Origin: Eledone cirrhosa
Taxonomy: Eukaryota
Length of the DNA: 64,000 nucleotides
Assembly (NCBI GenBank): GCA_964016885.1
Contig: OZ024743.1
Coordinates: 72,974,001-73,038,000, forward strand
Direction: 5' to 3'
Shown one piece after another: positions 3,252 to 63,476 of this stretch. The notes beneath the pieces were generated by a model. That model had not been told where the DNA came from. It did not search any database and saw only the letters and a list, made by a program, of their open reading frames with translations. Made by a program: the position numbers and the translations under genes. The first letter of the stretch is position 1. Each line of letters starts with the position of its first letter.

Positions 3252-3931
3252 CTAGCAGAATGGCCCGGCGTTGCTCCGGATTCTAAATATAGATTGGCAT
3301 GTTTATCCCTCCTTTCTGAAACAGTACAGAGATGTACGGAATACCTCGGCCTCGGATGGCGTCTAAATGTTGTTCTTATAAAAAAACTTCGTCTTAGATT
3401 ACCAGGGGTTTTTTTCCGCGCGAAGAAAATCAATACTTTATCGCGAAATAAATACCTTTGTTTATATTTTGTTATTGTGTATGCAAAATTATCTATACAC
3501 GAATATATAATTATATATATATATTAAAATAACAGATTAAAGTGTAAGCAAAGAATCGCTGCTTTCACCATTAACGGGATCTTCTGAAACTAAAAAATTC
3601 AATCTGTGAACGCAGAAGTAAATATTTCGAAAGACGTTACACACTATATATATATAAACACACACATATAGCGTCATAATGCCCTAATACACACAGATAT
3701 TATAAGGGCGCACGTTATATCTATGTATCTATCTAAAAAGAAAGACTAAGAATTATAGAGAGAGATCGCTAAATCGCCTAATACGGTCCCTAGCGCATTG
3801 AAAATTTGAAATATATTTTGCTCAAAACACTCACAGGACCGTAAGTATTAACTGTGTAAAGTTTGAAAACAATCGGTTGGATGGTTCTCGAGTTTTAGAC
3901 AGACAGACATTCTCTGTTTTAGATATATAGA
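3252..3931 (-). mobile_element. non-autonomous Helitron
   Basis: On the minus strand it reads A|TCTATATATC...GTCTGTCT at the 5' end, has a subterminal hairpin CCGG-AGCAACG-CCGG, and ends CTAG|T. This is the canonical TC...CTRR structure at an AT site. Confidence 0.75.
3534..3605 (-). ncRNA. hammerhead-like motif, CAGAAGA-core family, copy 1
   Basis: Reverse complement: AGTTT-CAGAAGA-TCCCGTTAATGGT-GAAA-GCAGCGATTCTTTGC-TT-ACACT. Same family as 53969, 62942 and 63203-63476. Confidence 0.45.
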
Positions 3932-4397
3932 TTATGTGTGTGTGGAAATGAGATATATTGTTCTTGTCATTTATATAGTCGGTGTTGTGAAGGCGTCCCT
4001 GAGCAGGAAGTGGCAGCAGCTGGAAATCCGCGTGCAATACACTTATTTAGGACACCGGATGTTTGCATGATTTGTTTTGTTGTTGTATACGCCATGAACA
4101 AATATATAATGGCTGGCATTCTGAACGTAATACTTGTCTCTTTTTTGTATATCACGAAACCATCCTTATTAATTTTAAAAGGTGTAATTGTCTGTGCAAG
4201 AGGAGTCTCCTCCATAATCTCCTCTCCGTAGCTCATAATTGTAGATTAGTATAGCCTCAATACAGAGAATACCAAGGGTTTAAGTCTGCAATGGACTGGT
4301 GTCCAATCAAGAGAGGATTCTTGTACTATCAGTCACTTAACACCAATAAAATGGGAATAAAGTCGACATGATGAGGATTGGAAAAAACTATAATATT

Positions 4398-4578
4398 CGT
4401 TTCTACTTTTGTCACAAGGCCAGCAATTACCCAGTACATTAATGGTACTTTATTTTATCGACCTCGTAATGATGAAAGACAAAGTTAACCTCGGCGGGAT
4501 TTGAACTCAGATCATAAAAGGCCGTAACTCTAAGCTGCAAAGCATGGTGTACGACTCTCTACCGATACTGCCAATCCC
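4398..4578 (-). mobile_element. tRNA-derived SINE family A (Meta-like central domain)
   Basis: Reverse complement has A-box TGGCAGTATCGGTAGAG, B-box GAGTTCAAATCCC and a variant of the body TTTGCCTTTCATCCTTACGGGGTCGATAAAATAAAGTACC. Many copies occur in the window. Confidence 0.85.
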
Positions 4579-6691
4579 TATAATATTACGGAATCAATGT
4601 GTATAATTTATCTATTATCAACGTTGCCTTATATGGATTGAGTTCAAGATGTGGCTGCTATTACCGTATTATTAGTATTTTGTATAAAGTCTGGAAATTT
4701 TCATTTCGAATGTTTCCGGTATAAAATCTTTATTCCCATCCTTATGAACATGACTATTACGAAAATGTATTCTGTCCCTGTCTCTATTGGGTATCATTTC
4801 AAATATTTCCCCATATTTGTGTCTCATGAATTTTATACAAAGAACTGCCAATACCAAGCAATATATTATTTAATGGTTAAATTAGAGATATTATCTTATC
4901 CTGAGTCAAACTTGTATAGTGTTTTAAGGAAGAACACAACCTATCAGAATTCTCTATGGGCTGTTTTACATATATAATACCATCATATTTTATGGAAAGA
5001 GAAAAAAACAAATATATACAGTCTATGGTGTTGTTTTATGATTATTATATATGAATCATGGTACAGGTTCATATTAACGAGTGTTTAACTCTATCCTGAG
5101 ACATGTGTCTCCTATCCAGTTGGAAGGTCATAGAAAGTATAATATATATTAAGAACTTTATTCCTCTTTATCCCCTCACCACCATCTAGCAACACACTAT
5201 TATCTCCTATCATGAAAGAGCTGTTAATAATGGTAGCGACTGTACTAGTTGTCAGTAAAATAGAATCATAAATGGTTTCCAGGTGGTAACGAATCAATAA
5301 TAAAATATATTTCTGTAAATGTGTTCCTCTGCCATAACAGAGTAAGCCATTCCAACCTTTTACAATAAATAAAATTCTTTCGATGTTTTTTTACTGCTCG
5401 GCTAGTGTATATGTAATAGTTATTACATTTTCTATCGTAGAGAGATAGTAGTATGATATCACAATATAATAACTTATGTCACACAAAATACATTTTCTTA
5501 TGGCAACTATTCAAACACTACCTTCTAAACTTGCCAATTTCTCTCACATTAGCTATGTCCAATTAATGCGAATATTTTTATGTGATTTCCTTTGAACTTA
5601 ATTCGTATTCTTGTACTGTTATATTCATTTGAAATGTACATTTCAAAGGTAAAGTTATATTATTATTCTCTCCCTCCTCTCTTCACCTTCTTACTATATA
5701 AATGCCTAAACTTTGTGAAACTTATTTTGAATAGTTCCAGTCCAAATTACCACCTCTAGCAAAACTCAGCGAACATTAGAACGAAATTACTGCAAAGCCA
5801 GGTATATTTATTGTCGCATTGAAACAGGCCTGCTTGTAACGTTGTGTATTCCACATGATTTGATAGATAAAAATAGCCATTCAAATCACTGGCAAAACAC
5901 TGTAGAGTTCATCTAGAGCTGAGTTGTAGGATTGGTATAGAAGCCATCTGATGTGTTTAGTAACTGACTATATTCTCCAAACAATATGACTGAAGTAAAA
6001 ATTTAGTCGTCTGTAAAATATATTGCTTCGTCAGCTCCTTGAATTAGAAGTTGTTTTTAACTAGGATTTTAACCTTTTTTCCATTGTTGAAGCTGGTTCA
6101 TCATTTTCGTAGATGGCTTTCTAACTGTCAGTTATTTCAGATACTCGTTTGTATTTGTTAAGTTCATTAAAAGAAGAACTATTTTGTTATTCATGTTTCG
6201 TAGATATTTACATCGTCATTAACATAGTTTTGAGGTCCTACAATGGAAACGTTTTAATAGTTTTCTATGCTCATCAGACCTCTATCCCTCTGTAAAAATG
6301 CGAAATATAATATACTATATTTGATTTGATCTCTGTATTCTAAATGCAGTCATTTAATCCCCGTTTTGTTTTCTTCCGTATATTAAGTCTTGCTAGAGTA
6401 TATCAATGGTCAATTGAGACTATTACAACTTATTTCAAGATGTTGATTGCTATTTTAAGTGCTAATATTATGTCCCTATAATATACTTTCATAGCCATTT
6501 CTTTTATTTGTGTACTCTGTGTAATATCTATTTCATTGAGCCATGCGTCAGTATCTCTGTGTTTCATCAAATGCTCGTATCGTAGTTTCTTTATCCCACA
6601 TATTAATGATTTTTACTAATTTTGCATTCTTCAAGTATGCGGTGGCGCCTTATTCTCGTCGAAATTTTTCGACATTCTGTCTCGTTAATTA

Positions 6692-6880
6692 ATTGTTTCT
6701 ACTTTGGGCACAAAGCCAACAATTATCCCAGTGTATTACTGGTACTTTATTTTATCGACCCCGTAAGGATGAAAGGCAAAGTTAACCTCGGCGGGATTTG
6801 AACTCAGAATGGAAAGAGCCGTAACTCTTTGCTGCAAAGCATGGCGTCCGATCCTCTACCGATACCGCCAATCCACCGCC
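6692..6880 (-). mobile_element. SINE family A
   Basis: Full-length copy of the same consensus. Confidence 0.85.
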
Positions 6881-7192
6881 CTGTAAATTAATGTAATCAC
6901 TGTTATATTTTTTCCGTGGTCTGTCACCCTCAGCGTATAAGTAGAGAGTGTCCATACACAAGAGAGTTTTGTTTAATATCTGACTATAGATCTGTTTAAC
7001 ATCGTAGTTAAAAGGTGTAATGCTAGATGGAGAAGTTGTGAGAGGGATTCCTCTTGGAAGGTTTTTCTTTAAGATCAGATGCCTTTAAATTCAGATGTTT
7101 GTTTTCGTTGGCATGATATATCCTTGAGCAAGGTATTTACTTTTGCTTTGCTCCAGTTCACTTGTAAATTATAGGATTTACAAGGTATTATA

Positions 7193-62112: not shown

Positions 62113-62815
62113 CATCGTTCCTTTGTCAGTGTTGAACAAAAGGGCAACGATGGTTGCCGAACGCTGTACGGCTTAATTCGGGCTGTTTGTTTACAAACAA
62201 ACAGAACATTATAATAAATGTTCGGTAAACCCATACGTACGTATATATGTGAGCATATAGGTATGTATATACATACTGCTGTACGTCTGTATACATATAT
62301 GTATGTACGTACACATACTTAGATTTAAGTATCAGCCGTACTAAGAGTGAGATATGAAATTTCATTTTTTCATTTTTTCCATTTATAGTTTTCGGAGCGC
62401 CTGGCCGACTAATTCACTCGATATGCAAATTAGGCTGCTCAGCTGTTAATATGCATAAGGAAAGTATATACTTTCAAACGTTAACTCATCTGACAGGACG
62501 GTAAACGATGCTGATGACAGCTAAGAAGCTCGAAACTAGTTCATCGTTTCCTCTGCCAGTGTTGAACAAAATGGCAACGATGGTTGCTGAACACTGTATG
62601 GCTTAATTCAAACTGTTTGTTTACAAACAAACCGAACATTATAAAAAAAGTTCGGTAAACACATACGTACATATATATATATATATATATATATATATAT
62701 ATATATATATATATATATATATATATATATGTGTGTGTGTGTGCATGTATGTATGTATATACATACTGCTGTACGTCTGTATACATATATGTGTGTACGT
62801 ATACATACTTACATT
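62113..62815 (+). mobile_element. retrozyme-like partial tandem repeat (~430-nt unit)
   Basis: 62113-62325 is repeated at 62542-62815, with an HHR at the junction and no coding capacity. Confidence 0.6.
62503..62549 (+). ncRNA. minimal type I hammerhead ribozyme with palindromic loop III
   Basis: AAACGATG-CTGATGA-C-AGCT-AAGA-AGCT-C-GAAA-CTAG-TT-CATCGTTT, with an 8-bp helix I. Confidence 0.82.
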
Positions 62816-62941
62816 TATATATATATATATATATATATATATATATATATGTGTGTGTGTGTGTGTATGTGTGTGTGTGTGTATGTGTGTGTGTGTGTGT
62901 ATATATATATATATATATGTATGTATATTTATGAAATTAAC

Positions 62942-63013
62942 AGATTAAAGTTTAAGCAAAGAATCACTGCTTTCACCCTTAACGGGATATTCTGAAACTA
63001 AAAAAATCAATCT
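62942..63013 (-). ncRNA. hammerhead-like motif, CAGAAGA family, copy 3 (core CAGAATA)
   Basis: Reverse complement: AGATTGA-T7-AGTTT-CAGAATA-TCCC-GTTAA-GGGT-GAAA-GCA..TGC-TT-AAACT-TTAATCT. Confidence 0.4.
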
Positions 63014-63202
63014 GTGAACGCAGAAGTATATATTTCGAAACCAATGTAGAATTATTCAGATGTTGTTTCTGCATGATGAATATAAGTCAATAGAGTACTC
63101 AACCGAGGGAGTAAAATAATAATAATAATAAATTTGAAGACTAAAATCAAACGAAGACTCGATAAGGATAAATATATATCAAATATATAAAAACAATAGA
63201 GG

Positions 63203-63476
63203 AAATATTTATTAAAATAACAGATTAAAGTTTAAGCAAAGAATCGCTTCTCTGACCCTTAACAGGATCTTCTGAAAATAAGAAGTCAAACTGTAAACGC
63301 AGAAGTAAGTATGTATGTATATATATATATATATATATATATATATATATATATATATATATACATACATATTTACTTCTGCGTCCAGAGATTGATTTTG
63401 TTTTCAGAAGATCCCGTTAAGGGTCAGAGAAGCGATTCTTTGCTTAAACTTTAATCTGTTATTTTAATAAATATTT
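63203..63476. repeat. inverted pair (copies 4 and 5) of the CAGAAGA family around (TA)n
   Basis: ~115-nt arms; both share the derived GGGTCAGAGAAGCG variant. Confidence 0.85.

Follow-up and report, generated by a model that had tools for sequence, protein, structure and literature searches.

Can a hammerhead motif that lacks the uridine of its CUGA turn be kept by selection in a retrotransposon, and does such a motif still cleave? The question is raised by a 64,000-nt stretch of the 3.0-Gb genome of Eledone cirrhosa (OZ024743.1:72,974,001-73,038,000, forward strand), hereafter the window, which carries five copies of a repeated hammerhead motif, four in minus and one in plus orientation. The original prediction had reported copies at 3534, 53969, 62942, 63203 and ~63365, all with A at core position 4 (A4); five copies are present at about these places, and A4 is found in 5/5. 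Because U4 is regarded as near-invariant and CUGA is required by standard searches, families like the one described here escape detection and are classed as having no hammerhead. We found that the five repeats are broken ends of a very abundant, recently active Hydra-clade Penelope-like element (PLE), that the motif lies in its pseudo-long terminal repeat (pLTR), and that A4 is the state of the whole family.

A Hydra-clade element and its broken ends in the window

The open reading frame (ORF) of the element was reached by walking upstream from the motif in genomic loci. The unit is 3,259 bp long and stands head-to-tail in one locus (L085), with the motif at 1923 and 5182 and the ORF start at 2124; on the sense strand, the motif lies ~200 nt upstream of the start codon and again ~1 kb past the ORF stop. 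An intact ORF of 709 amino acids (aa) was present in 4 of the 12 young copies fetched, and the 40 ORF copies that were scored are 98-100% alike. This single ORF encodes a reverse transcriptase (RT) followed by a C-terminal GIY-YIG endonuclease: the nearest Atlas clusters carry HTH_animal, RVT_1 and GIY-YIG at 0.95-0.98, and direct Pfam and NCBIfam scans of the element protein gave 0 matches.

The clade was assigned by the motif marks of the published definition, not by an RT tree (Craig et al., 2021; PMC8557442); statements taken from this and the other papers cited refer to the portions of each that were available. The translation contains DKT, a CxCX5C linker, and CxxC and CxH around conserved E and N, with no CCHH. 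These marks are shared with Hydra-clade PLEs, as are the C-terminal GIY-YIG ORF, the (TA)n target and a 3' hammerhead in which helix II closes with U-U, helix III has 3-4 bp and base 17 is U. The Eledone element differs from the clade in having RWR in place of RWK, a unit of 3.26 kb where Hydra-clade elements are generally <3 kb, a loop III of 9 nt rather than 1-3 nt, a long bulged helix I, and A4, which occurs in 0 of the 26 published rows, themselves found with a canonical descriptor (PMC8557442). A canonical hammerhead near the 3' end also belongs to the definition of the clade; here, the motif stands at the expected place but has A4, and it is unlike the hammerhead of the published Hydra-1_oBim. 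Neptune, the first clade label, was dropped against the Hydra-clade definition.

As had been proposed, the retroelement is associated with (TA)n: its copies end in this repeat, the preferred target of Hydra elements (PMC8557442). Copies occur as tandem or inverted pLTRs, are 5'-truncated and often inverted, and end in a tail and (TA)n. Insertions have two 3' end points, ~10 nt beyond the long helix I in many cases and at the end of a ~100-nt tail in others; genomic copies extend beyond the predicted cut site. Metazoan PLE hammerheads similarly lie in pLTRs, have a pLTR intron and are mostly dispersed as single truncated copies (Cervera and de la Pena, 2014; PMC4209133). Among 61 Eledone copies compared across the pLTR intron, 2 joined the upstream donor to an acceptor ~100 nt before the core, 50 retained the intron end and 9 had other joins. 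Spliced genomic copies (L031 1402 and L048 1402) show a pLTR intron with two donors, and six copies (L006, L008, L009, L014, L046 and L074) start exactly at the acceptor, after AG. The idea that A4 is a splice acceptor that rebuilds CUGA on splicing was rejected, as a search limited to joins with the main donor gave 0 matches.

The window copies (Table 1) are 82-91% alike across 104-136 nt, and each has at least one further damaging change. Mismatches fall in helices II and I of the copy at 3586, whose predicted scissile bond follows position 3546, and in helices II and III of the copy at 54021; the copy at 62994 has G8U. The copies at 63274 and 63405 form an inverted pair spanning 63183-63496, and their second core box is damaged alike, with G12-A13-A14 lost. 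The full hammerhead fold that had been ascribed to the repeat thus holds for the family consensus and not for the window copies. Directly past the window end is another copy, which includes 1.1 kb from the 3' part of the element (L095 1041-2169).

Fixation of A4 and conservation of the motif

A4 is fixed in the element family, in every subfamily sampled. The motif 30-mer with any base at position 4 had 18,547 exact matches genome-wide and its reversed control had 0; the same 30-mer with U at position 4 accounts for 72 of the 18,547. In 12 young loci that were fetched, 18/18 motif copies are A4. Older subfamilies gave 270 matches; among the 100 matches listed, 86 have A4 and 9 have U, and the U-bearing old-type copies inspected are all inverted joins (5/5). 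The motif is also present in read sets X5, X8 and X9, of which X8 and X9 are one contig each and none is recorded as RNA, with no other base listed at position 4. Elsewhere in the core, changes at G8 do not rise above background among young-subfamily copies (C, G or T at G8, 18,588 matches; any base at position 4, 18,547 matches), and N7 is U in 9 of the 28 older copies parsed (2 of 30 were skipped).

The alternative that had been raised, that most genomic copies carry CTGAAGA and that A4 reflects local decay, is ruled out both by the 72 U-bearing matches and by the nature of the CUGA copies inspected: A4 is the family master. A relaxed pattern that counts CUGA found 1,107 copies genome-wide, and the 12 of these that were inspected (L096-L107) are without exception fold-back inverted joins centred on position 4 and lacking the 5' strand of helix I. 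Inversion joins cluster at core position 4, where the core is near-palindromic, and the join creates a canonical CUGA without a helix I partner (up to ~1,100 genome-wide). A canonical (CUGA) older subfamily was considered and rejected, with only 4 matches, and no subfamily with a compensated helix II was found among 75 matches.

The core and stems are under purifying selection with A4 in place. Old and young ORFs differ at 79 of 170 four-fold sites (~46%), and the old ORFs are contiguous with the old pLTR in two loci (L147 and L153). In a subfamily tree built from the flanks, with 121 of 165 copies kept, none of the 36 core and stem sites differed from one subfamily to another, whereas 5 of 22 sites in loops, bulge and N7 did (p=0.006), as did 29 of 184 flank sites (p=0.006). 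Because the core and stems were invariant despite this many silent differences, the motif stayed under selection with A4. The changes that did occur are located in loop II, loop III, the helix I bulge and N7, sparing the paired and core sites, and the lack of change at the 12 unpaired core sites differs from the silent ORF rate at P=5.5e-4, a value not adjusted for base composition. Most copies in the tree were fetched with core-including patterns, so a set sampled by flanks only (n=32) is the fair check; it agrees, with A at position 4 in 31/32 older copies, C in 1/32 and U in 0/32.

Fold, relatives and the question of cleavage

The consensus has a type I hammerhead layout. Its helix I is long and bulged and leads into C3-A4-G5-A6-N7-G8-A9; helix II has 3 bp, is closed by U10.1-U11.1 and is followed by G12-A13-A14; helix III has 4 bp and a loop of 9 nt, and base 17 is U. 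The master has C3, G5, A6, G8, A9, G12, A13, A14, A15.1-U16.1 and H17, all of them invariant across subfamilies; the U4 of the CUGA turn is replaced by A4, and position 10.1-11.1 is an unpaired U-U instead of the usual G-C. Helix II had been given 4 bp, one more than it has before this mismatch. Helix III had been singled out as exceptional for a PLE; since 3-4 bp is normal for Hydra-clade hammerheads, only the 9-nt loop III, longer than usual, is out of the ordinary, and in one family of this genome with a canonical core loop III reaches 8 nt. All three helices are pairable and conserved, helix I having an open end, but the fold lies above the energy minimum and its core helices lack covariation, as detailed below. 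The suggested comparison with Rfam hammerhead models gave no match on the motif at E<=10, and for the window no hammerhead was among the matches listed (150 of 213). A sequence search of the PDB was negative.

By position and architecture, the motif is a hammerhead homologue, as judged by comparison with related elements. Such elements in the same genome (L031, L082 and L087; 34-45% aa identity) carry a hammerhead with U4 in the corresponding position of the element, as do 4/7 metagenome loci, and metagenome relatives at 38-39% aa have a hammerhead nearly identical to that of Hydra-1_aMil. The Hydra hammerheads in File S2 of Craig et al. (2021; PMC8557442) are U4 in 26/26 rows, with U-U closure in 14/26 and U17 in 10/26, a helix III of 3-4 bp and a loop III of 1-3 nt. 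Because all relatives have U4, A4 would be the derived state; it is the single true deviation of the motif from its relatives. Rare core changes do occur in nature: U4C retains viroid infectivity and U10.1-U11.1 is tolerated, whereas the text of that survey, figures aside, does not list U4A (Perreault et al., 2011; PMC3088659), which in Eledone has become fixed across a family numbering at least 18,000 copies. The core variant described for metazoan PLEs is a compensatory U3-A8, unlike the uncompensated U4A of Eledone, where helix III is able to form in the monomer (PMC4209133). The variant had been called possibly undescribed; no report of a natural U4A hammerhead was found in the literature, with subscription papers and several supplements outside the search's reach.

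Several lines of background bear on whether the motif cleaves. Work of Ambros and Flores from 1998 reportedly found that a viroid hammerhead no longer cleaves with U4A. Among the bases allowed at H17, U is generally the poorest. Single and double CUGA mutants of a type III hammerhead all had low activity except for a C3-G8 swap (Roberts, 2023; PMC9901934), and metazoan PLE pLTR hammerheads have low in vitro activity (PMC4209133). For one Poseidon PLE, hammerhead cleavage depends on the element's protein and is dispensable for insertion in vitro (PMC11167929). Against this background, unaided cleavage of the Eledone motif is probably poor and may not occur. The 5' breakpoints of the copies show no peak at the predicted scissile bond: they lie at +38 to +41 in 5/30 loci, with none at +41, and counts by eye gave ~18/98 vs 27/98 at +45 to +48. 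Canonical families show no clear peak either, so this comparison says little about cleavage.

Our preferred explanation, which we hold at a probability of roughly 55%, is that A4 derives from U4, that the fold has been retained and is bound by the element protein beside the insertion end, and that cleavage is weak or protein-assisted. U4 would have changed to A in the element lineage while the rest of the hammerhead core was retained; the protein, as in another PLE clade, may bind the fold beside the start of reverse transcription, and the fold would be kept for that. New copies would then be made from RNA uncut at the 3' motif, and any cleavage would be slow or protein-assisted. The PAc Poseidon hammerhead offers a parallel, as it lies near the insertion end, its copies come from uncut RNA, and their 3' ends fall at two points with a tail between them; it differs in clade, in having a canonical core that overlaps the ORF start, and in having been assayed in vitro (PMC11167929). 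Some of our data pull the other way. The hammerhead fold, at -12.3 kcal/mol, is 2.8 above the minimum-energy fold of -15.1, and pair probability is 0.05-0.08 for proximal helix I and 0.33 for helix III. No compensatory change was seen in proximal helix I, helix II or helix III across subfamilies; the sole compensatory swap is in one terminal pair of distal helix I (T-A 23, C-G 4, G-T wobble 2, unpaired 5; n=34). The unpaired core taken alone does not stand apart significantly from the pLTR flanks (0/14 vs 29/184, p=0.23), and good conservation extends to the ~35 nt directly before the motif, so other constraints overlap it. Finally, were cleavage wholly absent, the strict retention of G8 and G12 would be harder to explain, which favours a competent ribozyme.

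Such a ribozyme, in which the long bulged helix I, the monomeric helix III and possible loop contacts rescue the core and allow self-cleavage at U17 at a normal rate, seems to us quite improbable. It would account for the other catalytic residues remaining unchanged over 46% silent divergence while N7 varies, and for G8 mutants staying at background in the young subfamily. Proximal helix I, however, is weakly populated, and U17, poor as it is, counts against normal cleavage as well, yet stands in 10 of the 26 Hydra rows. The published record cuts both ways, since natural core variants including U4C and the U10.1-U11.1 mismatch can be active (PMC3088659) but CUGA mutants had low activity with no second-site rescue (PMC9901934).

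A relic that U4A inactivated long ago, conserved only through overlapping promoter, splice or reverse-transcription-start signals that have nothing to do with a hammerhead fold, is unlikely. In its favour, conservation of the entire pLTR end exceeds that of silent sites, the core is preceded at ~100 nt by a splice acceptor that is used, the core lacks covariation, and Naiad elements proliferate without canonical hammerheads (PMC8557442). The confinement of changes to loops, bulge and N7 is, however, the pattern of a hammerhead, and splicing of the main donor onto the AGs inside the motif had 0 matches. Chance likeness of an ordinary repeat end to a hammerhead is highly improbable; it would fit the lack of an Rfam match and the unremarkable folding z-scores (between -0.36 and -1.77 for six sequences folded), but the strand, position and architecture are those of the 26 published Hydra-clade hammerheads and of the U4 motifs in related elements.

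The A4 lineage separates fold from chemistry, as a residue needed for cleavage has changed and the other core residues have remained under selection. Intact young copies supply both the RNA and the protein, so the role of Penelope hammerheads is directly testable. That the Eledone motif is a natural U4A hammerhead that truly cleaves, alone or switched on by the RT-endonuclease, and that selection has kept it over ~46% silent divergence, is a tentative and rather doubtful proposition. If true, it would mean a functional hammerhead without a uridine turn, escaping CUGA-based searches, in one of the most abundant retroelements of the genome.

Other hammerheads and repeats in the window and genome

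Table 1. Copies of the A4 element and other repeats in the window. C3 is the first core position; "unit" is the full L085 unit.
Feature	Position	Strand	Details
5'-truncated 3' end of Hydra-clade element with A4 motif	3490..3641	-	C3 at 3586; ends in (TA)n; 87% match to unit
Longer 3' fragment: pLTR with intron acceptor region and A4 motif	53928..54288	-	C3 at 54021; ends in (TA)n; 76-81% match to unit
3' end fragment with A4 motif and additional G8U	62900..63040	-	C3 at 62994; ends in (TA)n; 91% match to unit
Upstream pLTR piece: A4 motif, ~100-nt tail, first codons of the RT-endonuclease ORF	63045..63304	-	C3 at 63274; start codon 63074-63072; 86-91% match to unit including ORF start
(TA)n microsatellite separating two inverted copies	63305..63368	.	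read from the sequence
Inverted 5'-truncated pLTR copy with A4 motif	63369..63496	+	C3 at 63405; 88-95% match to unit
~190-bp repeat resembling a short interspersed element, about a dozen copies 78-89% alike	4389-4577, 6685-6888, 29437-29941, 33315-33897, 36921-37279, 50891-51104, 57223-57438, 60443-60658		
Longer diverged repeats, 69-73% alike	24221-25048 vs 53105-53930; 38521-39490 vs 40443-41407		probably other retroelement fragments
Self-inverted stretches, some with hammerhead motifs	16097-16456, 23142-23277, 47950-48564, 51096-51411		expected of fold-back Penelope ends

Hammerhead motifs of other repeat families are also present in the window, at 27707 (+), 23823 (-), 28780 (+), 53021 (-), 51474 (+), 62511 (+), 16348 (+) and 16209 (-). 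They have U4 except for the decayed motif at 16209 (C4), and they often form fold-back pairs beside (TA)n. A fragment at 54646-55032 on the minus strand encodes the endonuclease of another Hydra-type family, 45% aa identical to the A4 element, with no downstream hammerhead found. Outside the window, the U4 hammerhead of a related Hydra-type element (L031 ~1130-1260; 45% aa) contains a helix II region of ~105 nt that is rich in microsatellite sequence.

The canonical-core family with the 8-nt loop III (L037, L021 and L105) is abundant, with 58 BLAST matches in 866 kb of loci, and combines U-U closure with a 4-bp helix III; it offers a natural positive control for assays. In the window, at 62105-62306, a copy of the family of the 62511 motif appears to start at the predicted cleavage site of that family, and 2/20 such copies start within 4 nt of it.

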